Notes under the pieces: model-generated
What the model was told of the DNA's origin: nothing
Database searches by the model: none
The model's input: only the letters and a program-made list of their open reading frames with translations
Part shown: positions 809-35,309 of the stretch, in pieces
How positions within the stretch are numbered: the stretch's first letter is position 1
Layout: the number at the start of each line of letters is the position of its first letter
Made by a program: the position numbers and the translations under genes
Assembly: GCF_004010195.1 (NCBI RefSeq)
Contig: NC_057757.1
Coordinates: 5,370,430-5,434,429 of the forward strand
Direction of reading: 5' to 3'
Length of the DNA: 64,000 bases
DNA from: Chiloscyllium plagiosum
Lineage: Eukaryota

Positions 809-936
809 AAAACGTGGCATCGTGACCTTCCTGTCTGGTAAGGATGCAAGCCAAGCACTGAAGTACAACGGTGAAGAGTTGCTCGGCCGGGCCCTGCGGA
901 TACGCCGGCCCCTGCAGATCCTGAGACCGGTAGCAA
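809..936 (+). CDS. Nucleolin-like gene, exon encoding an RRM C-terminal half (nucleolin RRM1-like); gene begins upstream of the window
   Basis: Pyrimidine tract + ttag acceptor, A|gtaagt donor, phase 2-1. (R)KRGIVTFLSGKDASQALKYNGEELLGRALRIRRP resembles nucleolin RKFGYVDFESAEDLEKALELTGLKVFGNEIKLEKP. Confidence 0.85.
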
Positions 937-1030
937 GTAAGTCGAAGGCTTAGTTAACGTCCGATCCTTGCATTTTTCCTGCAAGTGAGGTTGTTACCTT
1001 GTTTGACAGGTGCGATGTTTATTTTCAAAG

Positions 1031-1114
1031 TTGTCAAGGGAAGGAAACGAAAGCTTAAGGATGCTGACGGGGAATCCTTGATTCCGGCAAAGAAGAAGAA
1101 TGTTCGGAAAGCAA
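1031..1114 (+). CDS. Nucleolin-like gene, Lys-rich mini-exon 1 (84 nt, bipartite NLS-like)
   Basis: ttttcaaag acceptor, A|gtacgt donor, phase 1-1; VKGRKRKLKDADGESLIPAKKKNVRKA. Confidence 0.8.
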
Positions 1115-1517
1115 GTACGTGGCATCATCACAGCAGCGTTCCAGAACTGTCGTCGAATGTGCCGGTAGATTTGGTGGTGGGGGTGGGGGGGTGCAGGGTG
1201 CAGAGCAGCCAGCTACCTCAATCTCAGGGTCCTTTAAAGCTGTGGCTCAGTAGCTGACTAATCTTTGAACTGCAGAGTTGTGGGTTTGGGTCCCAGCTCG
1301 TGGACCTGAACACACAACCTGGGACAGCATTCCCACCGTGGGATGCGTGCTGCTGAGGTGCCACCTTTCAGACTGAACATTGGCAGCTAAGTTGGAGACC
1401 CCATGACATGACAGCATTTGTCTCTGAACCGATATCTCGATATAGCCGTGGGATCTCGCAGTATGTGAGTCGGCTGCTGGGTTTTAATTAGAACATTTCA
1501 AAGATTCACTCAGTCTA

Positions 1518-2130
1518 GTCTATTGTATTAGCTGCTGACAATGTGGTCTCCTCTATACTGAGGAAACGAAGGGTAGGCTGGGTGACAACTTCACAGAACA
1601 CCTACGTTTTGCCCGCAAAAAGGACTCCGAGCCTCCAGCTGCCTACCACTTCAACACATAGCCCTGTGTTCCCTGGCCAACATTTCTGTCTCCAGCTCGC
1701 TGCAGTGCTCAAGTGAAGTTCAGTGCAAGCTGGAAGAACAGCACCTCGTTTTCCGCTCAGGAACTCTGCAGGCTTCTGGACTCAATATCGAGTTCAACAC
1801 CTTTTAGGGTTTGAGCTGTCCCATGGCCTTACCCCAACCCCACACACCAGGCCTTATTATCACAGGGTCTGCTATTATGACTGTTAGCTGCTAACAGTCC
1901 CCATTATTAGCTATTCACTTTCCTAGCCTGATCATCATCCACTCCTTTGTCTGTCCAACTGTTCTCTCACGTTTTGGGCTCTATCTCCATCTATTGTTTA
2001 CCCACCGCCACCACCACCCTGTCATCAGTTCTGAGATAGGGTCACTTGACCCATAATGTTACTTCTGATTTCTCTCCACAGATGCTGCCAGACCTGCTGA
2101 GCTTTTCCAGTGATTTGTGTTCTTGGTTCA
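1518..2130 (+). mobile_element. Decayed Penelope-like element 3' end (GIY-YIG endonuclease remnant + pseudo-LTR tail)
   Basis: Translates to VYCISC*QCGLLYTEETKGRLGDNFTEHL...YHFN* and KLEEQHLVFRSGTLQASGLNIEFN, followed by the tail (gatgctgccagacctgctgagcttttccag) shared with the palindromic repeats. Confidence 0.8.
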
Positions 2131-2398
2131 AAAATACGACACTGGCTGAAAACCACTTTGTAACTTAGACTTTGAAAGCCGCTGTAAAAATCATTATAAT
2201 TGTCAGGCCAGGGCTACAGGGCAGTGGCAGAAGGGTGGGATTAATTGAGTTGCAGGTGCAGAGAACTGCTATAGATGTGAGGGGGCTGAGTGGCCTCCTC
2301 CTGTGCTATAACTTTTCTGTGATTCTGCAAGTCTTTTTGTACTTTTCCCAACTCTGTTCCCGTTGTTACTTGGCTCTTTACTTTTTGTTTTCCAAAAG

Positions 2399-2470
2399 CC
2401 ACATTGACTAAGAAAAACAAGAAGGAATCAGAGTTACTGATTAAAAGAAGGAAGAAAAAACAAGAACAAA
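2399..2470 (+). CDS. Nucleolin-like gene, Lys-rich mini-exon 2 (72 nt)
   Basis: Pyrimidine tract + aaaag acceptor, A|gtatgt donor, phase 1-1; TLTKKNKKESELLIKRRKKKQEQ. Confidence 0.75.
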
Positions 2471-3073
2471 GTATGTACACATCATCTGTTCCTGAAATGA
2501 ATCTGTACTCTTCTTTCCCTCTTTCTACCGAATTTACTGCTCCCCAGCAAACACCCAGAATGCACTCTGGTTCTAGCTCAGAAAATTGCTGACGGTTGTC
2601 AGTGTATCTTGTGCTACTGGCCCATGCACACCAAGAAGACAATCAAACTCTTGTCAAACTGGCTGAGCCTTCAGTGCTTAGAAGGAAGCCATTCAGCCCA
2701 TCATGCCTACTCGTGCTTTGTCAATAGAGTGTGTAAATCTGCATGTTCTAGTTGTGATTTAAGAACAGCGTATGCTATTTGGGCACCAGAGGGTATTCTG
2801 GAGTAATTCTGGTAGTGCCCCTTCCTCTGCACCAGGTTCAAGTCCTACCTGTCCTGGAGGTGTGTCATTACTTGTCCGAACAGATTAGGTTAAAAGTCTA
2901 TAACAACCCAGTTCCGCCTGGGAGAGTCTGGACTGTGGATGGGAAATGTGGGCAGCACCTATGCTGTAGGATAAACTAACTGGCCAGGTCTTGTTTCACC
3001 CTTTAACCGATAGACTGCTAATCCAGAACCCAGGCTAACGCTAATAGGTTGGGTATAGGTTTGATTCTCACCA

Positions 3074-4024: not shown

Positions 4025-4093
4025 AAGCTGAGAAAATAGAGGAGGAGGAAGCATCGACACGTCAGAAGATGAAGAAAAGACATTGGGAGATAA
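4025..4093 (+). CDS. Nucleolin-like gene, mini-exon 3 (69 nt)
   Basis: ttcatcag acceptor (CAG/AAG NAGNAG), A|gtatgt donor, phase 1-1; AEKIEEEEASTRQKMKKRHWEI. Confidence 0.72.
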
Positions 4094-4704
4094 GTATGTA
4101 AATAGATACTTGCTGATATCTTGCAGATGTGGTCTCTCAGTGGTTAGCACCGCTGCCTCTCAGTGCCAGTTCCCTCAGGCAACTGTCCGTGTGGAGTTTG
4201 CACATTTGCCTCGTATGGGTTTCCTCCCACAGTCCAAAGATGTGCAGGTTAGGGTGGGTTGGCCATGCCAAATTGTGCAGAGCGTCCAGGCATGTGCAGG
4301 CTAGGTGAATTAGCCATGGAAATGCAGGGTTAGAGAGGTGAGGTAGGGGCTAGATCTGGATGGGATGCTCTTTAGAGGGTCTATGTGGACTTGATGGGCC
4401 AAATGGCCTGTTTCCACACTGAGGGGATTTTGTGTTTCTATCATCATAGGAGAAGACGTAGGCCATTCAGCCTGTTGAATCTATTTTGCTACTAGTGATA
4501 CAATGACTGATCTCATAATCTTCAACTCCACTTCTCTGCTTTTTCTCCAACCACTCTTGGTATCCTTACTGAGTTTAAATATACTTAATGATCCAGCCTT
4601 GACAGCCCACTGTGATAATGTAATCCCCAGACTGACTACCATCAGAGAAGAAATTCCTCCTCATTACTGTCCCAACTGGAAGACCCTATTCTGAGATGAG
4701 CACT

Positions 4705-6840
4705 TTGGAGAGATTGACCATAGTTCAGTTACATTTAGTTGGAAAGGGATAGGTACATGCCACAGGTTAAGAGTTATTGATGGAGCAAGGGCAATTATAA
4801 TGTGATTAGGCAAGAATTACGATGCATAGAATGGGGTAGCAAAATGCAGGGGATGCGGACAATGGAAATGTGGAGCTGGTTTAAGGAATAGATATTGCGT
4901 GTCCTTGATAGGTATATCCCTGTCAGGCAGGAAGTGATAAGGTAAGGGAACCGTGGTTTACTACAGAAATTGCATCTCTTGTTAAGCGGAAGAAAAAGGC
5001 TTATGTGTTGATGAGACAGGATGGTTCAGATGAGGTGATGGAGAGTTACAAATCAGCTAGGAAGGATTTAAAGAGAGAGTTAAGAAGAGCAAAGGGAGGA
5101 CACGAGCAGTCGTTAGCAGGTAGAATAAAGGAGAACCCTAAAGCTTTCTATAGATATGTGAGGAATAAAAGGATGACTAGGGTAGGAATAGGGCCAGTCA
5201 AAGACAGAAGTGGGAAGTTGTGTGTGGACCCTGTGGAGATCAGAGAGGTGCTAAATGAACATTTCTCATTGGTTTTCACTCAGGAAAAGGAGAATATTGT
5301 AGACGAGACGATTGAGATACGAGATATTCGACTAGAAAGGATCGAGGTTAGTTACGAATAGGTGTTATCAATTCTAGGATTGAAAGTAGACAAGTCCCCT
5401 GCGCCAGATGGGATTTATCAGAGGATTCTCTGGGAAGCTAGAGTTGGAGCCTTTGCTTTTGATATTTGAGTCATCATTGTCTACAGGTTTAGTACCAGAG
5501 GACTGGAGGAATGCAAATGTTGTTCAAGAAGGGCAGTAGAGATGACCCAGGTAATTATAGACCACTGAGCCTTACTTCTGTTGTAGGAAAGGATTATAAG
5601 AGAGAGGATTTATAATAATCTAGCAAGCAACAATTTGATTTCGGATATCAACGTGGATTCGTCATGTCTCACAAACCTTATTGAGTTTTTTGAGAAGGTG
5701 ACCAAGCATGTAGATGAGGGTAGGGCAGTTGATGTGGTGTACCTGGACTTTAGTAAAGCCTTTGATAAGGTAAGCTGTTGGAGAAAATGCAGAGACCTGG
5801 GATTGCGGGTGATTTACCAGTTTGGATTGGAAACTAGCTTTCTGAAAGAAGGCAGCGAGTGGTGGTTGATGGAAAATATTCAGCCTGGAGTCTGGTTACT
5901 AATGGTGTGCCACAAGGATCTGGTTGGGACCACTGCTGTTTGTCATCTTTAAAAATGACTTAGACGCAGGCAAAGGTGGATGGATTAGTAAATTTGCAGA
6001 TGACACTAAAGTCGGTGGAGTAGTGGACAGTTTGGAAGAGTGTTACAGGTTGCAGGTGGACTTGGATAAACTGCAGAATTGGGCTGAGAGGTGGCAAATG
6101 GAGTTCAATGCAGCTAAATGTCAGGTGGTTCACTTTGGGAAGAATAACAGGAAGGCAGAGTACTGGGTCATTGGAAAAATTCTTGGTAGTGTGGACATGC
6201 AGAGGGATCTTGGAGTCCATGTACATAGATCCCTGAAAGTTGCCACCCAGGTTGATAGTGCTGTTAAGAAGGCATACGGTGTGTTAGGTTTCATTGGTAG
6301 AGGGATTGAGTTCCGGAGCCGCAATATCTTCTGCAACCATATAAAACGCTAGTTCTGGTCACCATATTTCGGGAAGGATATGGAAGCATTGGAAAAGGTG
6401 CAGAGGAGATTTACCAGGATGCTGTCTGGTCTGGAGGGAAGGTCTTATGAGGAAAGGCTGAGAGACTTGGGTCTGTTCTCATTGGAAAGAAGAAGGCTAA
6501 GAGGAGATTTGATAGAGACATACAAGATGATCAGAGGATTAGATAGGGTAGACAGTGAAAGTCTTTTTCCTAGGATGATGATGTCAGCTTGTACAAGGGG
6601 GCGTAACTACAAATTGAGGGGTGGTAGATTTAAGACAGATGTCGGAGACAGGTTCTTTATTCAGAGAGTGGTAAGGGCGTACCTGCCAATAGTTAACTCA
6701 GCCACATTAGGGAGATTTAAACAATCCTTGGATAAGCACATGGATGATGGTGGGGTAGTATAGGGGGATGAGCTGAGAATAGTTCACAGTTGGCGCAACA
6801 TTGAGGGCCGAAGGGCCCGTTTTGCACTGTTTTGTTCTAC
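4705..6840 (+). mobile_element. CR1-clade LINE (HER1-like), degenerate ORF2 and 3' UTR
   Basis: ORF fragments with VYLDFSKAFDKV, KFADDTKVGG and LEKVQRRFTRM...GLFSLERRRLRGDLIETYK; frameshifted. Confidence 0.92.
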
Positions 6841-7578
6841 GTGCCACACAAATCCCAAGCAACAATCATCACTGATAAGAGACAGTCTAACCACTCCCTC
6901 TTGACATGCAGTGGTGTTACTGTCAAAGCCCCCACTATCAACATCCTGGGGGATTATCATTGACTGGAAACTCAACTGGACTCACCACATAAACACTGGC
7001 TACAAGAGCAAATCAAAGGCTAGGAATACTGTGACAAGAAACTCCCCTCCTGACACCCTAAAGTCTGTCCATCATCTACAAGGCACAAGTCAGGGGTGTG
7101 ATGGAATACTCCTCAGTTGCCTGGATGAGTGCAGCTGAAACGACACTCAAGAAGCTCGCGCCATTCAGGACAAAGCAGTCCACTTGATTGGCACCACATT
7201 CACAAACACCCACTTCCCTCAGTCGCAGCACTGTGTGCTATCTACAAGTTGCACTGCAGCAATTCACCAAAGATGCTCAGACAGCCCTTCCTGACCCTCA
7301 GCCATATCCATCTAGAAAGACAAGAGCTAGCAGATACGTGGAAACACCAGCCCCTGCAAGTTCCACTCCAAGCAAATCTCCATTCTGGCTTGGAAATATG
7401 TCAGTGTGTATGTTGCTGTCGCTGGGTCAAAATGCTAGAATTTCCTTCCTAATGGCATTGTGGGACTGCAGCAGTTCATGAAGGCAGCTTGTCCCCCACC
7501 TTCTCGAGGGCAACTAGGGACGGAATAAATGCTGGGCCCAGCCAGTGACACCCACAATCCTGCAAATGAATAAAAAAC
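6841..7578 (+). mobile_element. 3' fragment of a second CR1/L2-group LINE family
   Basis: Homologous to 12765-13285; ends in aataaatgctgggcccagcc...gaataaaaaa, a tail shared with a SINE family in this window. Confidence 0.65.
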
Positions 7579-7828
7579 ATTGTCCTGTAGAACACCCCTC
7601 AGTCCTCTTCAAAATAGCAACTGAAGGATCTTTTATGTCTACCCAAAGCCAGCCTCAATTTTAGCCAACAGCCAGCATTTTCAAAACCGCAGCATTCTGT
7701 TAACACTGCCACCAGAGCTGTCAGCCTGAATCTTTGTGCTCAGGTCTCCAGCATGGGAATGGAGCTCTTCAGATGAGCATTATGACTTGTCCATATGGTT
7801 ATTTGAATAGAAAGGATTACAGAAAAAA

Positions 7829-8186: not shown

Positions 8187-8264
8187 CTGCTTCAACTGAG
8201 CAGCATGGAGAAGACGCCACAGAAACCTCGCTTCGGCAGCTGAAGAAACGGAGACGCGGCAAGT
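8187..8264 (+). CDS. Nucleolin-like gene, mini-exon 4 (78 nt)
   Basis: tttcttcctgggaag acceptor, T|gtaagt donor, phase 1-1; ASTEQHGEDATETSLRQLKKRRRGK. Confidence 0.72.
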
Positions 8265-9331: not shown

Positions 9332-9412
9332 CAGCTTCAAGTGAGGGACGCAAAGGCGATGATCTGGAGGACAAGCTATTTGAGAAGGAAAAGAAGCAAA
9401 GTACAGAAAAAC
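9332..9412 (+). CDS. Nucleolin-like gene, mini-exon 5 (81 nt)
   Basis: ttctcaaaaag acceptor (alternative CAG 3 nt downstream), C|gtaagt donor, phase 1-1; ASSEGRKGDDLEDKLFEKEKKQSTEK. Confidence 0.75.
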
Positions 9413-11218: not shown

Positions 11219-11308
11219 CTGCTTTTAGTGAAAACGCAGATGGGAACGCTGCTTCTCTGCCTCAGAAGAAGAAGAAGAAAAAGAAAAGGAAAAAAGCTGA
11301 GGAGAAAG
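11219..11308 (+). CDS. Nucleolin-like gene, mini-exon 6 (90 nt, poly-Lys)
   Basis: tttcttcccaaaaag acceptor, G|gtaagg donor, phase 1-1; AFSENADGNAASLPQKKKKKKKRKKAEEK. Confidence 0.78.
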
Positions 11309-13285: not shown

Positions 13286-13398
13286 CAACCTTGATGTATC
13301 GCTACTGTGTCGCAGCCTCCCCTGAAACACCACGAGCGATTCCCTGGTACATTTACAAAGAAAGGCTTGCCACAAAACATTTCTTTGGTCTCCTTCAG

Positions 13399-13482
13399 TT
13401 TTCTTAAGCGACAAGAGAGCAGAGGAGAAGGAGAAGGTTGCCTCTGTGCTGCAAAAGAAAAAGAAAAAAAGGAAGAAGAAAC
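13399..13482 (+). CDS. Nucleolin-like gene, mini-exon 7 (84 nt, poly-Lys)
   Basis: tctccttcag acceptor, C|gtaagt donor, phase 1-1; FLSDKRAEEKEKVASVLQKKKKKRKKK. Confidence 0.8.
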
Positions 13483-13691
13483 GTAAGTAGATTAAACAAT
13501 TTCTAACAACAAAGTCTGAAGTAGTGCTCAGTTCTGTCTCTTTGATGCCATGATCTGTCCCATTAACAAGGAGTCTGACAAATGCAGGGCTCCTATCCTG
13601 TCCCACTGCATTTCTCTGCCAGGCCTACATTGCTCAGTCTGGTTGTCTGATAATGCCAACTGTTACTACGTTCTTATTTTCTTCCTCGAAG

Positions 13692-13772
13692 TGACTTTAA
13701 GCAAGAAAACAGCAGTGGAGGAGCACGCCACCAGCGCAAAGACGAAGAAACGTAAAAAGACGCAAGAGAAAA
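13692..13772 (+). CDS. Nucleolin-like gene, mini-exon 8 (81 nt)
   Basis: ttttcttcctcgaag acceptor, A|gtacgt donor, phase 1-1; TLSKKTAVEEHATSAKTKKRKKTQEK. Confidence 0.75.
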
Positions 13773-14470: not shown

Positions 14471-15681
14471 AGGATAACAGGCTTGGAAGGAGCAATTCTT
14501 CCCATTAGGGGTTTGAGTTTTTTTTTCACGGAAGCGTAAGAGGTTGAGGGGTGACTTTTATGGAGGTTTATAAAATCATGAGGGACATAGGTAAGGTGAA
14601 TAACAAGGGTTGTTCCCCTAGGTCGGGGAGTTCAAAATCAGCGGGCATGTTTTTAAGGGAGGGGAAAAGGTTTTAAAGAAGATGTGAAGGGTAACGTTTT
14701 TACACAGAGGGTGGTCAGTGTGTGGAATGAACTGTCCGAGGAAGTGGTGGATGCGGGTACAGTTATAACATTTAAAAGACATTTTGATAAGTAAATGAAT
14801 AGGAAAGGTTTGGAGGGATATGGGCCAGGAGCAGGGACTGGTTTCGTTTTGGAACGTGGTCAACATGGACTGACTGGACCAAAGGGTTTGTTTCAATATG
14901 GTGTGACTCTGTAATGGATGGTATCAGGGTGAAGGGACAAAATTTAAAGTTTCAGACTGGAGATTTAGGGATGCTATGGAGCATGTGATAAGAACTCGGG
15001 ACGTCGCGAGGGTGCTGGAAGCAGAGACTAATTCCAAAGGGAAATTGGATGGCCACTCGGCGGGGGGGGGGGGAATAAATTTTCAGGGCTACAGGTATCG
15101 AGCAGGAGAGAGGCACTGACTAGATTGCTCCGCATGGAGCGGGCATGGACTCAATGGGCTGAATTGTCACTGCCTCTACTGTAAATGACTCCATGCTCCA
15201 GCATGGAAGGAGCTCATTCAGCCCCTTGGGTGATCTCTTTGAAAGAGTTCACGAACAGCTCCCACTTCCCTTTGCCCTTGTTCTTTCCCCATCGCTTCAT
15301 AAATTTTTCCCCTTAAAGCATTTATCCACTTTCCCTTTGAAAGTTAATGCAGAATAATTGAAAGCGAGCACTTCCCAGGTCACAAAAACCCGCAATGTCA
15401 GAAAATCATTTTTCATGTTGTCTCTGGTTTTGTTTGCAAAACCACGCTGTACAAGTCTTCTCAAAACTCACCGCACTGTATAAACAAAATGTGCCTGAGA
15501 TGAAATATCGTCTTGTTTTATACTCCTAAGGGCCATTAGCAGGGATCTAGGGCTTGTGTTTTCACCTCTCTTGTGTTGTCCAACCCTGACCTTTCCTTAC
15601 AATCTGTACATCCCTGAAACACCCTAGTACCAGTGTCTACTTCATCAGGAGTTATGAGTACAAGTTGCACAGTTTCACTGG

Positions 15682-16482
15682 TGCTACCTCACGTTTGCAA
15701 TGATTTGATCCCTGTGGTTCTGGCCCTACTTGGAGCTCCTCTATGCTCCTTCCCTCCCCAGGTGAAACAACTAGCTCAGTGTCCATTGGTGGGGGTGGGG
15801 GTGTATGTGTTGGTGTGCCATCCAGTAAGACCAAACCCAGATGACACTGAAATATTTTGAGACCCCCCCACCCCACCAAACCAAAATCCCTTTGGTGTTT
15901 GCAAAGCCCCAGTTTGTGACCATGTTTAGAATGATAAAGACCTCCATTGGGTTAGGAAAGAAACCAACTTTCTTCGGGGAATCGACAGCGTGAGGTCCTT
16001 CTACTCATCACGTTTCTTGTTCTCGCAGCTTCCTGGTGTCTCTATATCGAGAAGTTGAGGTCCCAGAATTCACCTTGTGAGCTGATGCTACCTCACGTTT
16101 GCAATGATTTGATCCCTGTGGTTCTGGCCCTACTTGGAGCTCCTCTATGCTCCTTCCCTCCCCAGGTGAAACAACTGGCTCAGTGTCCATTGGTGGGGGT
16201 GTATGTGTTGGTGTGCCATCCAGTAAGACCAAACCCAGATGACACTCAAATATTTTGAGACCCCCCACCCCACCAAACCAAAATCCCTTTGTTGTTTGCA
16301 AAGCCCCAGTTTGTGACCATGTTTAGAATGATAAAGACCTTCATTGGGTTAGGAAAGAAACCAACTTTCTTCGGGGAATCGACAGCATGAGGTCCTTCTA
16401 CTCATCACGTTTCTTGTTCTCGCAGCTTCCTGGTGTCTCTACATCGAGAAGTTGAGGTCCCAGAATTCACCTTGTGAGCTGA
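15682..16482. repeat. Tandem direct duplication of ~400 bp (15682-16085, 16086-16482)
   Basis: Two near-identical adjacent copies differing by small indels and substitutions. Confidence 0.92.
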
Positions 16483-16699
16483 AGGCAGCCATTGGCGATT
16501 TTCTAAGTGAGAGGTCGGTCCCATACAAAGAGATCCAGCTGGATCCTGACAGGTATGGGCTTGAGTTTCTCTCGCGGCAGTCAGTTTTCTATCCAACTGG
16601 GACATGATGTCAAATCCAGGGAAGGAGATGCTTTTTCTTTCCCAACTCTAGGCACGTAGTGTCAGCGGCAAAAACTCCCAGACTACATAAATCGTGTTC

Positions 16700-17140: not shown

Positions 17141-18429
17141 AGGGCAAATAAAGTGAAGCTGCTTTCCACTGCAAAATCAGATCATCCCAAATCAGGTCCA
17201 GGGTGGAAAGAGATGCAGTTAATTTCCCCAACCGCCTGCCCACAATACAACAATAAGCCCCCAATGGCTTTTCTGAATCTTATTGTAAACTTGCATTTGC
17301 ACACTACAGAAGTAACTTTCTAACATCCCAACCCTTCACATACGCTGTGGAAAATTGTTATGAACAGCAGATATTGTCATGTCATTGTGTGCACTTAAAG
17401 ATCCCATAAATATCGGAGAGGGGGGCGGGGGGTGGAATGATGTTGCATAGTGTAGAGAAACATTGGTGCATTACCCAGGAGTAAAGGAGTCCAGCATCCA
17501 CCTGAACCAGTGGGACTGGTGGTTAGGACCTGGGGTTAATGTCTCATCTGACAGACGGCTATCTTCAATGCTGCAGAACTCCTTCACTACCCAGTCTGAA
17601 TTGTTGGATGGGGTCAGAACACAATATCCTCACCAGAAGCAAAACTGCTGCTAACACCCATCGTTTGGAAGCTTGCTTCAGGTGGGGTCACATGACTGAG
17701 GGGAGTTTAGCATTACGCCATAACTGTAGATTCATATATCAATGTCTACAAAATGAAAGGATGCAAATTTGCCAACCTTCCTCTGGAATTCTTCCTTGAT
17801 AGGTACCACCATCCAGTTCTGTCTCAATGTATTAAATAATTTTGCACCTTTTGCCTGTACATCAATTTGTAGAATCTGTACACCAGAATTTCATAGTTCA
17901 TCTGAGCAAGTTTAACGTGGTTTCTCTGTATTTCAGGCCCTTTAGAAAAGAAGCCAAATGCTTTGCCAGTGTTTTGAGCAATCTGTGTACTTGTTTAAAA
18001 GTTAGATTTATTTGATCAATTTGACCGATTTCTTGCTGGCTCACTTCCAGCTGCTCCGCCTGTGTTGAACTGAACCATGAGGGCGATCTGAATGAAGCTC
18101 TGCAGTTTGGCACGTGCAACATTCTCGGACAAGTAGCAAGATTAAGCAAGGTGGAGAAACTGGGAGCGCTGAATGGCAGTGAGTCAGTCTCTTTTTTTTT
18201 CAGCGCCTTCAGTTCACGATGCTCTGCTGAAGGAATTGTTTCCTGGCGTAGGAATCCCCTAAGGGGAATGAGCCTCCTGGTCATTGGCAAAGGGACCAGG
18301 CTTCATGCTGAGCCTGAACGATGCACGTTGCAAAGCTGAGTAGCAGGGGTCCTACAAAGGAGACCCCAGTCCCTTCCTTTACCAACACGCAAAGGCTGTC
18401 CAGCCAGAGAGTATGCCTTGTTTCTCGGG

Positions 18430-21353: not shown

Positions 21354-21471
21354 GAATTGACTCTAGGACACTTCGTGTGAAAACCCTTCCAAGTGACGTC
21401 TGTGCCAAGGACCTTAAGCGTTTGTTTGAGAAAGTTGCTGGTGTTTGGATATGTCAGGACGTCAACAAAAG
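21354..21471 (+). CDS. Nucleolin-like gene, RRM N-terminal half
   Basis: tttccttttag acceptor, AG|gtacgc donor, phase 1-2. IDSRTLRVKTLPSDVCAKDLKRLFEKVAGVWICQDVNKR resembles nucleolin RRM2 ERDARTLLAKNLPYKVTQDELKEVFE. Confidence 0.85.
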
Positions 21472-21978: not shown

Positions 21979-22094
21979 GTTTGGACTTGTCATGTTTGAG
22001 ACAGAGGAAGACACAGCTAACGCGCTAAATAATGGTGAAATAGAATGCAGAGGAAACCTGCTCCGACTGGACCGTGCATATCCAGTGAAACAAG
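21979..22094 (+). CDS. Nucleolin-like gene, RRM C-terminal half
   Basis: ttttctttgccag acceptor, G|gtatgt donor, phase 2-1; RNP1-like RFGLVMF then ETEEDTANALNNGEIECRGNLLRLDRAYPVKQ. Confidence 0.88.
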
Positions 22095-22847: not shown

Positions 22848-23043
22848 GCGCAGCAGGTCAGGCAGCATCCAAGGAGCAGGAGAATCGACGTTTCGGGCAT
22901 GAGCCTTTCTTCAGGAAGGACTTCTTCAGGCTCGTGCCCGAAACGTCGATCCTCCTGCTCCTTGGATGCTGCCTGACCTGTCGCGCTTTTCCAGCAACAC
23001 ATTTTCAGCTCTGATCTCCAGCATCTGCAGTCCTCACTTTCTC
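22848..23043. mobile_element. Palindromic Penelope-derived short insertion with 16-bp TSD
   Basis: Inverted arms; flanking direct repeat caacaaggtcagtcaa at 22832-22847 and 23044-23059. Confidence 0.75.
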
Positions 23044-25057: not shown

Positions 25058-25400
25058 TCTGGGAGTGTTTAATGGGGCAGTGTAGAGGAAGCTTTGATTC
25101 CAGTTTAAAACATAACCCCATGCTGTCCCGGTCCTGGGAGTGTTTCATGGGGACAGGGCAGAGAGAGCTTTACTCTGTATCTAACCCCGTACTGCCTCTG
25201 TCCTGGCAGTGTTTGATGGGGGACAGAGCTTTACTCTGTATCTAACTCCATACTGCCTCTGTCCTGGGAGTATTGGATGGGGACAGTGTAGATGACATTT
25301 TACTCTGTCTCTAACCCCATGCTGTCCCGGTCTTAGGACTGTTTAATGGGGGAACAGTGCTGTGGAAGCTTTACTCTGTGCTGTCCCTGTTCTGGAAGTG
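25058..25400 (-). repeat. Same ~68-bp minisatellite in the opposite orientation
   Basis: gggagtgtttgatggggacag...ctttactctgtatctaacccc units. Confidence 0.85.
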
Positions 25401-25512
25401 ACATCAGTCAGATGAGGCAGTCATGTTGGGTGTGTATTCATGTGGGTGTCCTTTGCCTGGAATGTGAAATACAGCTTGCAATGCACTGAAATGTAAACTG
25501 TTGTTTCTGCAG

Positions 25513-25630
25513 AGAAAAGGAAAATTCTTATGATTAAAAACCTGCCTTACCCAATCAGTAAAAAGAATCTAAAATCTATACTTAATGATGCTGAGGATAT
25601 CCACCTGTCAAAAAGCAACCAGTCACAAGG
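25513..25630 (+). CDS. Nucleolin-like gene, RRM N-terminal half (RRM2-like)
   Basis: tttctgcag acceptor, GG|gtgagt donor, phase 1-2; EKRKILMIKNLPYPISKKNLKSILNDAEDIHLSKSNQSQG, with RNP2 IKNLPY. Confidence 0.88.
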
Positions 25631-25739
25631 GTGAGTAAAACTTGGTCCATTAGCAACAATTTGCATTCATATATCACCTTTCACTAGTAACCCATCTCAA
25701 GGCATTACAAAGGAGTGTTATTAAACAATATTTGTCACT

Positions 25740-26790
25740 TCATCCATTAATGGTCTAGATGAAGGAACTGATGGCATTCTGGCTATGTTTGCAGACGATA
25801 CAAAGATGAGTAGAGGGATTGGTAGCATTGAGGAGGTGGGGAGGCTGCAGGAGGGTTTGGACAGGTTAGAGAGTGAGGTAAAAACAATGACTGCAGATGC
25901 TGGAAACCAGATTCTGGATTAGTGGTGCTGGAAGAGCACAGCAGTTCAGGCAGCATCCGAGGAGCTCCTTGGATGCTGCCTGAACTGCTGTGCTCTTCCA
26001 GGTTAGAGAGTGGGCAAAGAAGTGGCAGATGGAGTACAGTGTGGGAAAGTATGAGGTCATGCACTTTGGTAGGAAGAATAGAAGCATGGACTATTTTCTA
26101 AATGGGGAGAAATTCAGAAATCTGAAGTGCACAGAGACTCCAGAGTTCTAGTCCAGGATTCTCTCAAGGTAAACTTGCAGGTCGAGTATGTAGTTAGGAA
26201 GGCAAATGCAATGATGGCATTTATTTTGAGAGGACTTCCATATAAAAGCAGAGATAAACTTCTGAGACTCTGCACAGGCCACATTTGGAGTATTGTGTGC
26301 AACTTTGGGCCTCATATCTCAGGAAGGATGTACTGGCCCTGGAGCATGTTCAGAGGAGATTCACGAGAATGGTCCCAGCAATGAAAAGCTTAACATATGA
26401 GGAACGTTTGGGATCGGGGGGGGAGCTAATTGAAATATACAGAATACTGAATTGCCTGGACAGAGTAGATTTTGGGAAGATGTTTCCATTGGTAGAAGAG
26501 ACTAGGTCCCAAGGGCACAGCTTTTGAGTAAAGACCTTTTAGAATGGAAATGAGGAGAAAGTTCTTCAGCCAGAGAGTGGCAAATCAATGGAATTCACAG
26601 CCACAGAAGGCCGTGGAGGCAGGTCATTGAGTGTATTTAAGACGGAGATAGATAGGTTCTTGAGTATCGAGGGGATCAAGGTTTAGAGGGAGAAGGCGGG
26701 AGAATGGGGATGAAAACCTATCAGCCATGATTCAATTGCAGAGCAGACTCGGGCTGAATAGCCTAATTTCTGCTGCTTTTTCTTATGGCC
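25740..26790 (+). mobile_element. CR1-clade LINE 3' portion, interrupted by a palindromic insertion at 25876-25998
   Basis: FADD, LEYCVQLW and VQRRFTRM motifs; 14-bp TSD caggttagagagtg around the insert. Confidence 0.85.
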
Positions 26791-26874
26791 TTATGAGCTT
26801 TGTGAAATAATTGGGAGGGGGGGTGCTAAAGCTTGGTTGAAATTGTGATTGTCAAAAGGGGAGGTTTAGGGTTA

Positions 26875-27915
26875 GAGCGATCACATGGAATGCAGGGAGA
26901 ATTAGCCATTTGGATACAGACCTGGCTCGAAGATAGAAGACAGAGGGTGGTGGTCGAGGGTTGCTTTTCAGACTGGAGACCCGTGACCATCGGTGTGCCA
27001 CAAGGATCGGTGCTGGGTCCAGTACTTTTCATTATTTCTATAAATTATTTGGATGTGAACATAGGACGTATAGTTAGTAAGTTTGCAGATGACACCAAAA
27101 TTGAAGGTGTAGTGGACAGCGAAGAAGATTACCTCGGATTACAACGGAATCGTGATCAAATGAGCCAATGGGCTGAGGAGTGGCAGATGGAGTTTAGATA
27201 AATATGACGTGCTTTATTTTGGAAAAGCAAATCGGGGCAGGACTAATACACTTAATGGTAAGGTCCTAGGGAGTGTTGCTGAACAAAGGTTCATAGTTCC
27301 TTGAAAGTAGAGTCGCAGGTAGACAGGATAGTGAAGAAGGTGTTTGGTATGCTTTCCTTTATTGGCCAAAGCATTGATTATAGGAGTTGGGAGGTCTGTG
27401 GCTATACAGGACACTGGTTAGGCCACTTTTGAAATATTGCATGCAATTCTGGTCTCCCTATCGGAAGGATGTTGTGAAACTTGAAAGGGTTCAGAAAAGA
27501 TTTACAAGGATGTTGCCAGGGTTGGAGGATTTGAGCTATGAGGAGAGGCTGGGGCTGTTTTCCCTGGAACGTTGGAGGCTGAGGGGTGACCTTATCGAGG
27601 TTTATAAAATCATGAGGGGCACTGATAGGGGGAATAGCCAAGTTTTTTTTTCCCCCCAGGGTAGGGGAGTCCAAAATCTAGAGGGCATAGGTTTCAGGTG
27701 AGAGGGGAAAGATTTAAAAGGGACCTAAGGGGCAATGTTTTCACACCGAGGATGGTACGTGGATGGACTGAGCTGCCAGAGGAAGTGGTGGAGGCTGGTA
27801 CAATTACAGCATTTAAAATGCTGGCAAATGGCACTGGATTAGGTTAGGATATCTGGTCAGCATGGATGAGTTAGACCAAAGGCTCTGTTTCCATGCTGTA
27901 TGTCTCAGTGACTGT
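26875..27915 (+). mobile_element. CR1-clade LINE 3' portion
   Basis: GVPQGSVLGPVLFII...KFADDTKI and LERVQKRFTRMLPG motifs. Confidence 0.9.
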
Positions 27916-28184
27916 AATTCTAGAGCCTACTGCCTCGGCGGGTGAAGAGACAGTCACGGTGATGAAGGAGTGGCAGTCTGAGGTCAGTGATTGGGAGCGG
28001 TAGTGACTGGTGAGGGTGGGCGGGGGGACACTGAGATCCCCGTGTGATGGGAAGAGCTGGTGCAGGGGGCCAGACTTTGAGTGAAGGCAAAATCCCAGAG
28101 GGTTTTGAAACCAGAAGATGGGAAAGTTAAAACTGGGAGAGACTCAGAACACTAGAGAAACTCAGCAAGATCTGGCAGCGTCTG

Positions 28185-28382
28185 TAGAGAGAGAGAGAGA
28201 GAGCAGGGTTAACATTTTGTGTCATGTGTGACTCTTATAGAACAGTAACGTAGACGTGTTATGCTGGACTCACAACATCAACTCTCGCTTTCTCTCTCTC
28301 TCGCGCGCGCGTTCTCTCTCTCTCTCTCGCGTGCTCTCTCTCTCTCTCTCTCTCTCTTTTCCTCCCCCCCCCCCCCCCCCTC
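28185..28382. repeat. (GA)n/(CT)n microsatellites and a poly-C run
   Basis: Seen directly. Confidence 0.85.
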
Positions 28383-30566
28383 TCCAAACGAAGACAGACA
28401 GAATGTAAATTGGGCAAATTCAGAGCACTGAATATTCCCAAATAAAAAACACACCAGCCCATTACAAAGGCTGAGTTTTTGAAATTTACAGTCCTGCACT
28501 CACAAGAACGCTAAAAGTTAACTGTTATCTTTCTTTCTCAGAGTTTTTCAGGAATAATTGAAAATAAAACAAATCTCTGGGACACACACACACACACCAG
28601 CAGTCCCCCAACTTTGAAACTGGCAGATGTGAAAACTGACAGCTTTCTCTGAGGAAATAGGAAGATGGGTTTTACACACACCTCCATCTGATTCACACCA
28701 CCCTGACACATGCCTCTGAGCAGCAAAGAAATGGAAACTAAAAAACCAGGGGCTGGAATTCCCTCGCTTAGTTTGCACTTTTCACTTTCTCAACAGTCTC
28801 CAGATCTGAAAGGAGGCGAGTTTTCAAGCGTGCTTTGTTTTTACTTTAACACAGAGCTTTGTCTAACCAGGAGGTCACAGCAAGCACTGGGGGCTTTCTA
28901 GGTATCGAGACACCCCCCCCCACCCCCACCCCACCACCTCCCTCCACTTGCCCTAGAGTTCTACACAGGGGTGTACCCTACCATACAAAGCCCCCTATCC
29001 TAGATAATCGCTCCAACGTTGTCCTGTGCAGGGCAAAGTGGGAACTACTCAAAAGTTTTGTGTGTGTGCGCGCACGCGCGCACACTGTTTTGAGATTCAC
29101 CCCCCCCACCCACCTACACAGAGAGACACAAGGCAGCAGCAGTCTGACCCACTGTGCTCCTGCCTGGTCTCCTGAATAGGGAACGGACTCGGCAAGTGCT
29201 CGCTCCCTCAATCCCATTGAAGTGAGGTGGGGTGGGGAGAGGCTTCAGCAATGCTGCAGCCTGCTCAAAAACGAACCCTGAGACAGAGGGAGGGAGCAAG
29301 GCAGGCAGAGAGAGGAGAAAGGAAGCTGCAGAGAACTCCGAGTCCCAGAGGAGAGGCATTAGATCAGTCATCTGAATAATCAGTTATCAGAACGAAATAC
29401 TGCCCGCCCGTTTCGTTCGGATAATTGAGGTTCCTTTGTATTCCTACCTGCCTGCGCTTGGCCCAAATCCCTCCAAACATTCATGTTGTTATCCATGTCT
29501 TTTAAATATCGGTGTGGAGTGCCACTTACACCTGATGAAGGAGCAGCGCTCCAAAAGTTGGTGTTTTCAAATAAACCAGTTGGACCATAACCTGGCATCA
29601 TGTGATTTTTGGCCTTTTAAATATTGTAGTTGTATCCGTATCCGCCTCTTCCTCGGGAAGTTCATTCCACACACGAACCTCCCTCTGTGTTTTAAAAAAA
29701 AGATTGCCCCAATATCCTTTTTAAAATCTTTCTCCTCTCACCTTATAAATAAGCCCTCTAGTCTTGAAATGCGCCACCCGAGGGGAGAAGAAAGTCTTGT
29801 CGTTCACCTTATCTGTACGCCTGATGATTTTATAAACCTCTATGAAGTCACCTCTCAATCTCCCAACGCTCCAGTTTTAAAAAAAAAGTCCCAACCTATT
29901 GAGCCTGTCCTTATCACTCAAACCTTCCATACCCGGCAACATCCCGGGCGACCTCTTCTGAACCCTCTCCAGTTTAATAATATCCTTCCTATAATAGGGC
30001 GACCAGAACTGCACCAACCCTGCAGAAGAGGCCGCTCTAATGTCCTCGACATGACGTCCCAACTCCGATATTCAAACTTAACCGGGTCCCTAGATTAACA
30101 GCCCAGTGCCAATGTCACAATGCCATCGCCTCCCCATGTGCTGATCACAATAACTATCATCAGGGAAGGGAATCTGCTGTCCTCTCTCATTCTGGCCTGG
30201 GCGTGACTGACTCTTAACTGCCCTCTGAAATGGCCTAGCAAGCCAGTCATTTCAAGGGGCATTCAGGGATGGGCAACAAACATCGGCCTTGCCCCAGTGA
30301 TGCCCGCTTTTTGTGAAAGAGGGCACAGGAAAAAAAAGCCAGTTGAAGGGAAGAAATGTACAGAGCAACGGGGCAGGAGGAAGGTATAGGGACTTGATAG
30401 ACTCACTTTCTATGAAGGGCCCAGCAAAGACCCGACAGGGCGAACAGCCTGGCGTGCTGGATGTCGTGAGAGATCTGGAAAGTTCAGGTGTGACGGGGAT
30501 TGGGGGTTGGGGGGGAGCGGTGTAAGGGCAATTGCTGTGTTTTATAATTCATTGCTGTTGTTGTAG

Positions 30567-30712
30567 AGTTGCCTACGTGGAATACAAGACCACGAAACAA
30601 GCCAAACTTGCTCTGAAGGACTTCCAAGGCAGAGGTATTCCAGGCCAGGCAGTTCGAGTGGCTTCGATAGAGGAAGAGCAGGAGAGCCCAGAGAGCCAGT
30701 CTGACTGGTCAG
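30567..30712 (+). CDS. Nucleolin-like gene, RRM C-terminal half (RRM2-like)
   Basis: ttgttgtag acceptor, G|gtatgt donor, phase 2-1. GVAYVEYKTTKQAKLALKDFQGRGIPGQAVRV...SDWS matches nucleolin GIAYIEFKTEADAEKTFEEKQGTEIDGRSISL...STWS. Confidence 0.9.
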
Positions 30713-32582
30713 GTATGTACCAGTGCACGTGGTCCAAATCCTATTTGCGAACTGACTGGAGATTAGTGTAGTTAGAACCACCCTCAGTCACGTTGACTTG
30801 CTGTGCGCTGGTTACTGAATGGAAGCTACTGCTGCTGCTGGCATTTCTTTCCAACAGCTGAATTGTGGCCTTGCTGGCGTTAGGCTCCACAAATCTGGTC
30901 TCCTCTCGTCCCCGGGGATGATGGGGACACTGTGGACATGTGATCAGGTGCCTTGGTTTTATGTTTTGTGGACATGGGTTCGAATCCCACCACGGCTGCT
31001 GGTGGAGTTAACTTCAATGAATAAAATGCAAGACGACTAGCTTTGAAACAGCATGGTGTTCATGGGAATGTGTCTGTCCTTACCCCATCTGACCCACATG
31101 TGACTCCAGACTCACTTCAACATGGTTGATGTTGCCAGAACGGAGGCTGGATAGGCTGGGACCTTTCTCCCTGGATCATCGGAGGCTGAGGGGGTGACTT
31201 TACCGAGGCTTATAAAGTCATGAGGGACATGGATAGGATGAATAGCTAAGGTGCTTTTTCCAACGTTAGGGGAGCCCAAAACCAGAGGGCTTGGGCTTAA
31301 GGTGAGAGGGGAACGATTTAAAAGGGACCTAAGGGGTACCTTTTTCACACAGAGGGTGGTCGGCAAATAGGATGAGCTGCCAGAGGAAGTGGTGGAGGCT
31401 GGTACGGTTACAACGTTTAGAAGGCACTCAGGCAGTTACATGGAGTAGGAAGGGTCTAGAGGGATATGGGCCAAGTGCTGGCAAATGGGACTTGATTAAT
31501 TTAGGATATCTGGTTGGTCTGGACGAGTTGGGCCGACGGGTCTGTTTCCATGCTATGTGACTTTATGACTTAAGTCACCCCCTCAGCCCCCTCTGAACCA
31601 GTCGAACAAGCCACTCAGCTCGGGTCTGTTAGGGATGAGCAACACCCATCGAAAGAATTCATTGATCAGGATTTGCAGGGTCTCCGGCCTTGATGTGACC
31701 AGCTGTAAAAAGTAATTCAGCGGCTGGGAAGAACACGAATACAGGCTTCCCCCTGGTGTTTCACCAGTGACAGGGGAAGGTGGATAGTAGCTCTCCAGCC
31801 CAGGGACCAGTTGAAGCTCTCGAGTGACCAGTGAAGGTCTTTTGCCACATGTGCAGATGGCCTGGTCAACCTCAGACCCAGGGAGGAGACTCCTGATTTG
31901 TTACTCTGTAGTGCACAGAGGGCGGTACCCTGTAGTTATGGCCGACCCCTACTGAACAGCCCCCTCATCCAAGTACTCGCCAGCCACTGGGTCCTCCTGA
32001 CACTCCCCGGCCAACGCACTCGTGATCATGTTGGCATCCAAGTTGCCCTCTGGCTGCAGTCCCAGTAGTGGCCATTGCTCACTGTGGCGCTGCTGGGCCT
32101 GGAGAGCACTTCCAAATGGTTGGCAGCTCTTGGGAAGCAGGATCCTGTCCTCGATGGAGATGGACACCCCATCATTGGACCTAATGGGTACAAAGTCCGC
32201 CTGGGAATGCCCATGGATTGGGCCACCGCGTAAAGTCCAGAACACCCTTTTTGAGGAACTCTGTACGGTGGCGATGCCTCTCCCCCTCCATAGTCTTCCC
32301 TTGCTACTACAGTTCACAGAGGTTGGCATTGCCCATCTAACAAACAGCAATTTATTTTTCCACTGTCTTCTCTGAAAATGGAGAGAAAAGGCAATCCTTT
32401 GGGATTTGGTGTTCTTGCATCTTAAGTGCACGATGGAAAGCGTCAGCGTGTAATGTATCTCTTTAACAGCGATACATGGGTGTCTTCTCTCCTGGCCTTC
32501 TCTGTGATGAGCTTGCTCCGAGTTTTGAGGGAACGGACGAGAGTGTTTCAAGACTGCGCTGACCTGCTTTCTCTCCTTTCAG

Positions 32583-32706
32583 ATTCCACCAGATCCACCA
32601 GATCCCTGTTTGTATGGCGCCTGTCCAAACGAACAACAGTCAAAATGTTGAAATCAACCTTCAAGGAGGCCGTGGGTGCCAGGATACCACGAAAAAAGGG
32701 ACGGCG
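32583..32706 (+). CDS. Nucleolin-like gene, last RRM N-terminal half (RRM4-like)
   Basis: ctctcctttcag acceptor, CG|gtgagc donor, phase 1-2. STRSLFVWRLSKRTTVKMLKSTFKEAVGARI resembles PSKTLFVKGLSEDTTEETLKESFDGSVRARI. Confidence 0.88.
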
Positions 32707-33382
32707 GTGAGCATTCGCTGACTTTTAGGGAAAACACCAGCCAATTCCCGTTGCCACCACCATCCCGTGGAAAAGTTGAGAAGCTCTCCCATCTCCCTGT
32801 TCAACTACCATGACTGTGGACTTGTTGGGCCAAATGGCCCAACACTGTCTTCCACACTGTGGGGATTCTAGGATTCAAAACGAAAACACATTGTCTCGTG
32901 GTTATCACCAGCTGCAGGAGCTGACTCTGCAGCCAGGTTTCTTACAATACATCAGCAATTGCACTTGCAAAATATGTGCCATTGGTTATGAATTGCTTTG
33001 GCATGATCTGAAGATGGAGGGGGAGGTAATGGCCTAGTAGTATTTATCACCAAACTATTAATCCAGAGACCCAGGTAACATCCTGGGGACCCGGGTTCCA
33101 TTCCCACCATGGCTGATAGTAGAATTTGAACTTGATTTTTTTAAAAAAATCTAGTATTAAGACTCTAGTGATGACTTTGTTGGAAAAACCCATCTGGTTT
33201 GCTAATGTCCTTTAATGAAGGAAACTGCCATCCTTACCTGGTCTGGCCTACATGTGACTCCAGACCCACAGCGATGTGGTTGACTGCCCTCTGGGCACTT
33301 AGGGATAGGCAATAAATGCTGGGCTTAGCCAGCAACGCCCATGACTCACGAGCGAATAAAAAATTGTGAAAGATGGTATATG

Positions 33383-33698
33383 ATTAGATTAGATTCCCTA
33401 CAGTGTGGAAACAGGCCCTTGGGCCCAAAACGTCCACACCGACCCTCTGAAAAGCAACCCACCCAGACCCGTTCCCCTACATTTACCCCTGACTAATGCA
33501 CCTACGGGCAATTTAGCATGGCCAATTCACCCTAACCTACACATCTTTGGACTGTAGAAGGAAACCGGAGCATCCAGAGGAATCCCACACAGACATGGGG
33601 AGAATGTGCACACAGACAGCTGCCCAAGGCAGGAATTGAACCCAGGTCCCTGGTGCTGTGAGGCAGCAGTGTTAACCACTGAGCCACCGTGCCACCCC
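33383..33698 (-). mobile_element. HE1-type SINE
   Basis: Reverse-complement head cactgagccaccgtgccaccc and tail attagattccctacagtgtggaaacagg. Confidence 0.82.
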
Positions 33699-34399
33699 TA
33701 TATAGCTAGAACCTTTCTGTAAACTGATGAACATTAAACATTCAAAAACAGGGTAAATGTCATGTTATCGAGGAGCTGACGCCTAGTTGCTTCCTTGCTG
33801 TATTGGAAATGCTCCCTACCACAGCTGGGCTGTTGAGTGGAGGAATTAACCAAGCTTCTGATCCCTAATGGCTGACTAATCACTAGTAACACTAATAAAA
33901 TCCCAAGAGTGTAATGTGTGCGCGAGTGGGTGTTTAAATGATGACTCGGTGTGACGCATTTTGTGGTTGAATAGTTTACTGACGGGCTACCTCCTCCACT
34001 CACAGGTGAAGGATGTCTGCCTGTTTGTGGGTGAGGGATGGCAGGGGTGGGGGGGTAACCTGCCAAGCAGGATCCGAGCAGGAAAGAACACCAGTGGTCA
34101 CCGATGTCAGCTCGGTGAACCAAGCTTTCCAAGTTGGTTTTGCAGCATTGACATTGAGAGTGTGGGTTTGAGATTCCCATCACTGGGGGAGCTCTGTGGA
34201 GAGTATTTCTGTGTTTGCTGCTGACTCTCACGCGACCTCATGGGTTCGACACGTCCTCGCGTTGTCTCACAACCAGGGCCAGTGGTGGGAGAGGGGGGTG
34301 CCAATGCCACAAGTGATGGACTTGAAAAACAATTTTCCGTTTTTTAGAAATGGAGCCCAGGTGAGAAGGAGCCAAAGTCTGGACCTCAATGGCCTGTTT

Positions 34400-35183
34400 G
34401 TAAGAACATGAAGGACTAAAAGCAGGAGTAGGTCGTCTGGCCCTTCGAGCCAGCTCCACCATTCAATAAGATCATGGAAGATCATGGCTGATCTTTTCAT
34501 GGACTTAGCTCCACTTACCCTCCCTCTCACTGTATCCCTTAATTCTTTTATTTTTCAAGAAAAAAGTCTACCTTAGCCTTAAAAATGTTTACTGAAGTAT
34601 TGTCAACTCGTTCGCTGGGCAAGGAATTCCGTTGTTTAAGAACCAGAAGTTCCTTCTCAATTCTGTCCTAAATCTGCTCCCCTTAATTTTGAGGCTACAC
34701 CCTCTTGTGCTAGCTTCACCTGCCAGTGGAAACATCCTTTTTATTTTATCCATTCCCTTCCTAATTTTATATGTTTCTATAAGATCCCCTCCCTCCCTAC
34801 CCCCATTCTTCTGAATTCCAGTCTACTCAGTTTCTCCTCATAAAGCAACCCCCTCAACTCCAGTATCAATCTGGTGAACCGCCTCTGCACCCAAAGTGCC
34901 AGTGTATCCTTTCTCAAGTAAGGAGACCAAACCTGCACACAGTACTCCAGGTGTGGCCTCACCAGCACCCTGTACAGCTGCAGCATTACCTCCCTGCTTT
35001 TAAACTCAACCCCTTTAGCAATGAAGGACAAAATTCCATTTGCCTTCATAATTACTTGTACTTGCAAACCAACCTTCTGTGATCCATGCACAAGGGTGCC
35101 CAGGCCCCTCTGCATAACATCAAGCTGCAACATTTTAAGCATTCAAGTAATGATCCTTTTTTACTGTTATTCCTACCAAAATG
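34400..35183 (-). mobile_element. CR1-clade LINE 3' fragment abutting a splice acceptor
   Basis: Minus-strand ORF KANGILSFIAKG...LVRPHLEYCVQVWSPYLRKD. Confidence 0.85.
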
Positions 35184-35191
35184 TGCTGTAG

Positions 35192-35309
35192 GTTTGCCTT
35201 TGTGGACTTTAAGACGGCGGAGGAAGCAACGAGGGCACGGGCGCAGTTCCAGAATATGGAGATAGATGGCCAGCAAATGAAGCTATACTTTGCCAACTCT
35301 GCACAGTGA
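35192..35309 (+). CDS. Nucleolin-like gene, last coding exon (RRM C-terminal half, TGA stop)
   Basis: gctgtag acceptor, phase 2. RFAFVDFKTAEEATRARAQFQNMEIDGQQMKLYFANSAQ* resembles nucleolin RRM4 GFGFVDFNSEEDAKAAKEAMEDGEIDGNKVTLDWA. Confidence 0.88.

Follow-up and report, generated by a model that had tools for sequence, protein, structure and literature searches.

What kind of gene is spelled out by a chain of very small exons in a 64,000-nucleotide stretch of the shark Chiloscyllium plagiosum (RefSeq assembly GCF_004010195.1, contig NC_057757.1, positions 5,370,430 to 5,434,429, forward strand)? A first-pass annotation of this stretch, hereafter the window, had proposed a fast-evolving second nucleolin. 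Nucleolin (NCL) is a ribosome-factory protein and is usually regarded as single-copy in jawed vertebrates apart from later polyploids. We found that the locus is the RefSeq gene LOC122544342, which is annotated with the product name 'uncharacterized'. The gene is a member of the nucleolin family by descent, and it cannot be filed as a nucleolin orthologue. With a probability of about 0.55, it originated long ago as a copy of nucleolin, most probably in the 1R/2R whole-genome duplications, was kept in cartilaginous fishes, was rebuilt by exon duplication and loss, and serves as an accessory basic nucleolar RNA scaffold.

Exon structure of the gene

An unbiased AG-GT exon scan gave most of the exons of the first-pass annotation, and the remaining ones were read directly from the sequence. 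All 15 of these GT-AG exons are genuine. They have AG/GT ends and consistent phases, and they join in frame with a single terminal stop into 1507 nt with the acceptor at 9332, or 1504 nt with the acceptor at 9335. That model was not complete, however, because it skipped two exons, 16426-16552 (phase 1-2) and 18051-18178 (phase 2-1). These fit the phase chain and together code 84 residues, which form one complete additional RRM. The window therefore holds 17 coding exons and codes 4.5 RRMs in 585-593 amino acids (aa), not 3.5 RRMs in about 501 aa, and the whole protein has five RRMs, here RRM-A to RRM-E. Nine of the 11 RefSeq isoforms of LOC122544342 are identical letter for letter to a 17-exon model, and the other two each skip one lysine-rich exon. 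RRM-B, the added domain, is present in 11 of 11 isoforms and in 8 of 8 isoforms of the Hemiscyllium orthologue. Among the 10 candidates found with a single exon as query were two LOC122544342 isoforms, at 100%, and one protein of Hemiscyllium ocellatum, at 85%. The features of the locus are as follows.

809..936, plus strand: coding exon, C-terminal half of RRM-A (RRM1-type); the N-terminal half and a long N-terminal region lie upstream of the window
1031..1114, plus strand: exon with a nucleolin-like bipartite nuclear localization signal (NLS) motif; alternative acceptor at 1010
2399..2470, plus strand: lysine-rich phase 1-1 exon, skipped in isoform X5
4025..4093, plus strand: lysine-rich phase 1-1 exon
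8187..8264, plus strand: lysine-rich phase 1-1 exon
9332..9412, plus strand: lysine-rich phase 1-1 exon, tandem acceptors at 9332 and 9335
11219..11308, plus strand: lysine-rich phase 1-1 exon
13399..13482, plus strand: lysine-rich phase 1-1 exon, skipped in isoform X6
13692..13772, plus strand: last lysine-rich phase 1-1 exon
15678..16482, no strand: two-copy 397-bp tandem duplication, copies 96.6% alike; from 16029 on, copy 1 repeats in dead form the acceptor and the first ~57 nt of the exon at 16426
16426..16552, plus strand: N-terminal half of RRM-B (second, degenerate RRM1), missed by the earlier model
18051..18178, plus strand: C-terminal half of RRM-B, missed by the earlier model
21354..21471, plus strand: N-terminal half of RRM-C (RRM2-like)
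21979..22094, plus strand: C-terminal half of RRM-C, nearest, weakly, to the RRM3 C-terminal half
25513..25630, plus strand: N-terminal half of RRM-D (RRM2-like)
30567..30712, plus strand: C-terminal half of RRM-D and linker
32583..32706, plus strand: N-terminal half of RRM-E (RRM4-type)
35192..35344, plus strand: C-terminal half of RRM-E; stop codon 35307-35309, no RGG tail; candidate donor after 35344
37102..37230, plus strand: candidate non-coding last exon, presumed from its resemblance to the coding tail of other sharks; the start is placed, the end is not fixed

As claimed, each RRM is interrupted at RNP1 by a phase-2 intron. In the window the intron lies at codon 1 of RNP1 in RRM-A and RRM-B and at codon 2 in RRM-C, RRM-D and RRM-E. 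The corresponding NCL pattern (codon 1 in RRM1, codon 2 in RRM2-4) was deduced solely from database models that run out of intron-like sequence into the RRM at these points. The RRM N-terminal halves have phases 1-2, the C-terminal halves 2-1 and the linker exons 1-1, so that exon modules can be copied or dropped in frame. The protein is 1062-1256 aa long. Upstream of the window, two unrelated long N-termini (up to 441 and 533 aa; P0001 versus P0002) are joined to the same exon, pointing to alternative promoters or large alternative exons.

At the 3′ end, other sharks read on for 14-41 residues where the stop codon of the window stands, and the sequence past this stop is still tail-like in two frames. 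Position 37102 is the best-scoring place in 35345-44800 for one of three tail queries. The exon starting there is likely a former coding exon, judging from this resemblance. The stop codon lies 35 nt ahead of the putative last junction.

RNA contigs and reads were compared with positions 13300-33200 of the window; the reads bear on the eight exons from 13692 to 32706. Only run X5 was informative. Among the pieces listed, runs X1 and X2 gave intronic ones only, and run X17 was sparse (about 2 in 100 read); the listed joints were all repeat noise. Contig 17 of run X5, taken as RNA by guess, comes from a related organism, since it differs from the window at 4-7 positions per exon. It joined 16426-16549 to 18048-18178 and 25511-25629 to 30566-30712, and 232 of its letters fit the two exons that follow the first pair. 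Differences of the same depth were also found in the exons at 13692, 21354, 21979 and 32583. Thus the tested junctions were spliced, including those of the two missed exons.

Descent from nucleolin

The best PDB match was nucleolin, with an E value of 2.4e-33 versus 8.6e-07 for the top non-nucleolin entry, and the nucleolin profile scored 183 bits versus 56. We then scored each domain against RRM1-4 profiles built from 12 canonical nucleolins. RRM-A and RRM-B match only RRM1, RRM-D is best matched by RRM2 and RRM-E by RRM4. RRM-C falls between RRM2 and RRM3; by halves, its N-terminal part is RRM2-like and its C-terminal part RRM3-like, with small margins. The domain order is RRM1, lysine-rich repeats, RRM1′, RRM2-like, RRM2-like (or RRM3) and RRM4.

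The domain tree agreed with these scores. RRM-A and RRM-B grouped with RRM1 (99/96), RRM-E joined vertebrate RRM4, with amphioxus left outside (98/86), and RRM-C and RRM-D fell among RRM2. RRM-A, RRM-B and bony-vertebrate RRM1 were held together against amphioxus (92/97). The approximately unbiased (AU) test did not reject a constraint to RRM3 for RRM-D (p = 0.12) or RRM-C (p = 0.38). A possible colinear alternative is therefore that B-C-D-E correspond to RRM1-4 and that RRM-A is an extra RRM1. AlphaFold2 predicted the four C-terminal domains to be folded, with a mean pLDDT of 74.

These results support the proposed derivation from nucleolin. The nucleolin RRM1/2/4 layout in the first-pass annotation was right in derivation and wrong in the number and order of RRMs, as RRM1 is doubled. 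We rejected the motif 'DWS', cited there as nucleolin-like, as a nucleolin relic; it occurs in one of five aligned orthologues and is probably due to chance.

Remodelling of the protein

Like vertebrate nucleolin (NCL; PDB 9cb5, 1fje, 2krr), the shark protein has domains of RRM1, RRM2 and RRM4 type and a bipartite NLS motif beside an RRM1; a layout of two exons per RRM, interrupted at RNP1, is probably shared as well. Unlike NCL, which has four RRMs in the order 1-2-3-4, it has five RRMs with a doubled RRM1, and its length and two alternative N-termini also set it apart. The two proteins are 27-32% identical over four RRMs.

Acidic tracts, TPxK repeats and the RGG tail of nucleolin are gone. 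The longest D/E run is 3-7 in all 16 sequences compared, versus 9-33 in six of six canonical nucleolins. TPxK occurs 0-2 times in 16 of 16, versus 5-8 times in five of five canonical vertebrate sequences. RGG is absent from 14 of 16 and present once in the other two, whereas four of six canonical nucleolins have 8-12, the two with none being apparently cut or frameshifted models. The isoelectric point is mostly basic (at least 8.2 in 14 of 16 sequences), compared with 4.2-5.1 in six of six canonical nucleolins.

RRM-A and RRM-B are separated by a spacer of 114-382 aa with 25-35% K+R, which NCL does not have. In the window it consists of eight phase 1-1 exons, five of which resemble one another more than codon-shuffled sequences do (z 1.6-4.9, above 2 for most pairs). 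Fresh repeats are seen in other sharks. The bipartite basic motif lies in the first spacer exon, after RRM-A and before RRM-B, whereas its counterpart in canonical nucleolin precedes RRM1. This putative signal, a motif match only, is kept in seven of the eight orthologues shown (one with the first basic cluster only); in Callorhinchus there is none at this place.

The RRM1 aromatics are also lost. At the three RNP2/RNP1 positions, aromatics were found in 0, 0 and 3 of 15 RRM-A sequences and in 10, 0 and 0 of 13 RRM-B sequences, compared with 12, 12 and 12 of 12 in canonical RRM1. RRM-A has thus lost almost all stacking aromatics and RRM-B both RNP1 aromatics. RNP1 position 3 is aromatic in 0 of 15 RRM-A, 0 of 13 RRM-B, 11 of 12 RRM-E and 12 of 12 canonical RRM1 sequences. 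RRM-C keeps position 3 in 14 of 14, RRM-D keeps the RRM2 pattern, and RRM-E keeps all three aromatics in 10-11 of 12. The RNP consensus and the roles of the nucleolin acidic and RGG regions were taken from bioRxiv 10.1101/2021.06.09.447752.

Second copies are also found elsewhere. Teleost 'nucleolin-like' proteins (Paralichthys, Hippoglossus, Diretmus) likewise have no long acidic runs and few RGG repeats. They differ from the shark gene in that they nest in teleost NCL, have RRM1 to RRM4 in the usual order and share 36-47% identity with canonical NCL. Additional copies with reduced acidic tracts also occur in amphibians, as 'nucleolin-like' proteins of Ambystoma and Eleutherodactylus. Unlike the shark gene, these are about 49-56% identical to canonical NCL, and the models scored show neither a doubling of RRM1 nor a lysine-rich spacer. 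The teleost proteins P0038, P0042, P0046, P0052 and P0063 and the amphibian proteins P0051, P0055 and P0061 are independent copies that have shed acidic tracts and most RGG repeats. Flatfish nucleolin-like forms carry RRM4 several times over.

Occurrence and expression

When the four C-terminal RRMs were used as query, 15 proteins came up: 14 belong to 10 species of sharks and rays, and the last is a weak match from yeast. A profile search of 1.84 billion representatives gave 3472 proteins at E <= 0.001, of which 150 were listed and 20 of those named. It added Heptranchias, Mustelus, Pristis, Hemitrygon, Scyliorhinus and Callorhinchus, bringing the total to 16 chondrichthyan species. Retention across the chondrichthyans, as the first-pass annotation had suspected, is thus borne out, Callorhinchus included. 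In most sharks the gene sits on contigs of 10-35 Mb. We rejected X-linkage on the weak argument that a 9.99 Mb contig is smaller than the quoted X chromosomes of 16.4-28.8 Mb.

Expression was read from single-cell data on liver, spleen and kidney, mapped to the same RefSeq assembly, in the rows searched of the supplement of PMC11372145. There LOC122544342 marks T cells, with detection in 36.7% of them versus 22.3% of other cells (log2 fold change 1.16). A separate gene, 'ncl' (nucleolin isoform X3, identified by name only), marks T, B and proliferating cells and is detected in 83-99% of cells. As both are distinct genes in one marker table and one annotation, LOC122544342 is a second nucleolin copy and not the only NCL of this genome. 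The hint of gonad restriction was not sustained, because the gene is detected in somatic cells of immune organs.

Origin of the gene

We aligned RRM-A, RRM-D and RRM-E to RRM1, RRM2 and RRM4 (235 columns, 23 rows). The resulting tree unites the shark genes with full support (100/100), and the stem leading to them measures 1.67 substitutions per site. This stem and the low identity to NCL bear out the claim of fast evolution. Two sharks are 66% identical to each other, close to the value for bird and eel NCL (67%). The teleost nucleolin-like genes fall inside teleost NCL (95/95). Orthology with them was rejected on these free trees; the AU test did not reject it (p = 0.34). The duplication took place after the split from amphioxus (98/86 and 92/97) and, given the Callorhinchus orthologue, before the holocephalan split.

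Numbered close to the gene, within LOC 122544317-386, are among others GNB2, a GIGYF, RNase kappa, a lipoxygenase and a TM4SF. We take human NCL to lie about 1 Mb from CHRNG, and GNB2, GIGYF1 and SLC12A9 to lie together at human 7q22. In PMC6354393, GNB and GIGYF are among the 16 families of a 1R/2R paralogon (paralogon 5) around CHRND/CHRNG and CHRNB1/CHRNE, and its supplement places CHRNG at human 2:232.54 Mb. The nearby numbering of GNB2 and GIGYF thus fits a paralogon that also covers the human NCL region, favouring a 1R/2R origin. Pairs from 2R are described as one large chromosome and one microchromosome in PMC8302630. An origin by whole-genome duplication, as the first-pass annotation had suggested, is probable on this indirect synteny; the trees neither show nor reject it.

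Several points weigh against our reading. Three constrained placements of the shark clade were compared and none was rejected (p-AU 0.28, 0.34, 0.31). The synteny is built on LOC numbers close to one another and on assumed human positions rather than on coordinates, and on the shark side it covers the present locus. Neither bony vertebrates nor lamprey yielded a recognisable orthologue, and the named bony-vertebrate matches (among 20 named of 150 listed) are nucleolins or nucleolin-like proteins; as most of the listed matches are unnamed, this does not prove absence from bony vertebrates. A 2R origin accordingly requires loss there. The fold search gave generic multi-RRM proteins only, with nucleolin first at rank 14, and the Atlas put a Prp24 cluster (0.87) over a nucleolin-like cluster (0.85), both below 0.9; neither tool can tell one RRM family from another. 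Shark NCL was also sought with a lamprey query, and none of the 81 matches was chondrichthyan; this search was word-filtered and is no evidence of absence. Finally, two ray models end within RRM-E and so are without the C-terminal half of the proposed main RNA-binding domain. This gap, like the missing RRM-D in the models of Callorhinchus and C. punctatum and the missing RRM-B in that of S. torazame, may reflect isoforms, annotation gaps or real losses.

The gene might instead have arisen by a small-scale duplication in the chondrichthyan stem and then moved to its present chromosome, with no part in a whole-genome duplication. That it was recognised only in chondrichthyans fits such an event. 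So does the fact that divergent nucleolin-like copies arose separately in teleosts and amphibians, also without acidic tracts and, in teleosts, nested in teleost NCL, which makes lineage-specific copies of nucleolin common. The retained introns, however, show that the gene is no retrocopy, and a chance arrival in the matching paralogon is less probable than an origin there, so that we regard this alternative as rather unlikely. That the gene is the sole, highly diverged shark nucleolin, or belongs to another RRM family (RBM19, RBM28, Prp24), is far less credible and largely refuted. The absence of shark NCL from the 81 matches and the Prp24-like top matches of fold search and Atlas would suit it, but ncl is detected in 83-99% of cells under the same annotation, sequence searches single out nucleolin, and the 81-match search was filtered by words.

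Possible role

In the reading that we prefer, RRM1 would have been doubled and the lysine-rich exons multiplied between both copies, while acidic tracts, TPxK repeats and RGG tail were lost. The basic repeats and the bipartite NLS may carry the protein into the nucleus and nucleolus. There RRM-E, aided by RRM-C and RRM-D, would bind single-stranded RNA, and RRM-A and RRM-B, having lost their stacking aromatics, may act as protein-contact or structural domains. The protein would assist the handling of nucleolar RNA as a positively charged accessory scaffold, probably beside nucleolin. The histone-chaperone function of nucleolin and the recognition of the pre-rRNA stem-loop by RRM1-2 would be absent. 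From its sequence, the paralogue is most likely a basic nuclear or nucleolar RNA-binding scaffold that could not replace nucleolin. A more speculative proposal, to which we give little weight, is that a 1R/2R ohnologue lost in bony vertebrates reversed its charge in a burst on the stem and became a lysine-rich partner which attaches to nucleolin or nucleophosmin at their acidic tracts and tunes nucleolar assembly in cartilaginous fishes.

Two other roles were considered. The protein could be nuclear and non-nucleolar, a nucleoplasmic regulator of mRNA or small RNAs acting through RRM-C to RRM-E, with the lysine-rich exons as mere import signals. The losses of the RGG tail and of the RRM1 aromatics agree with this, as does its marking of T cells and, unlike ncl, of no B or proliferating cells among the rows searched, although non-listing there is weak evidence. 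Lysine runs of such size often send proteins to nucleoli, and we judge this role unlikely. The gene could also act chiefly in the germ line, evolving under relaxed or positive selection and expressed in somatic tissue only incidentally and at a low level. Consistent with this, RRM identity is 85-97% between two bamboo-shark genera, of the 20 coding differences listed against contig 17 of run X5, 15 alter the amino acid (omega about 0.9-1.15, confidence interval about 0.3-4.1), and there are two alternative long N-termini. However, the 20 differences are a listed subset, the RRMs are better conserved than the N-terminus in all nine comparisons (single domains excepted), and the detection in T cells and other cells at the rates given above also speaks against it; we judge it the more improbable of the two.

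Neighbouring gene and surrounding DNA

The downstream gene on the plus strand is a member of the SLC12 family. Its first three coding exons (44811-45024, 60881-61015, 62312-62456) are in frame, and intron 1 is about 15.9 kb. Family membership of the neighbour claimed as SLC12A9 is thus confirmed; its identity as SLC12A9 is presumptive.

The 397-bp tandem duplication at 15678-16482 could be recent or an assembly artefact. Further short near-identical local duplications lie at ~15620-16480, 42990-43170, 49840-50930, 60220-60411 with 63322-63514, and 63900-64000; two were computed and the others seen by eye, and they are possibly assembly artefacts. Decayed reverse-transcriptase fragments of long interspersed nuclear elements, presumably CR1-like, were found at 4690-6850, 25750-27900, 42780-44170 and 58100-58990, and many copies of short interspersed nuclear elements occur throughout. 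One 69-bp minisatellite forms two arrays in opposite orientation, at 16701-17121 (-/+) and 25113-25351, with deep coverage in the compared runs.

Significance

Literature searches on cartilaginous-fish nucleolin and six LOC identifiers found no published description of the gene; subscription journals were mostly outside their scope, and supplements may list it. It is annotated in RefSeq yet unnamed, and is a real, apparently undescribed variant of the nucleolin family. Because databases hide its orthologues under 'uncharacterized', 'titin homolog', 'trichohyalin-like' and 'mst101(2)-like', one name is now possible for these scattered records. The lineages of sharks, rays and chimaera split some 400 million years ago. 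The retention of a second nucleolin in all three shows that it was useful once its acidic and RGG ends were gone. With this gene, nature has run a domain-deletion experiment on a protein central to the nucleolus, and the gene is also a candidate ohnologue located on a shark microchromosome.

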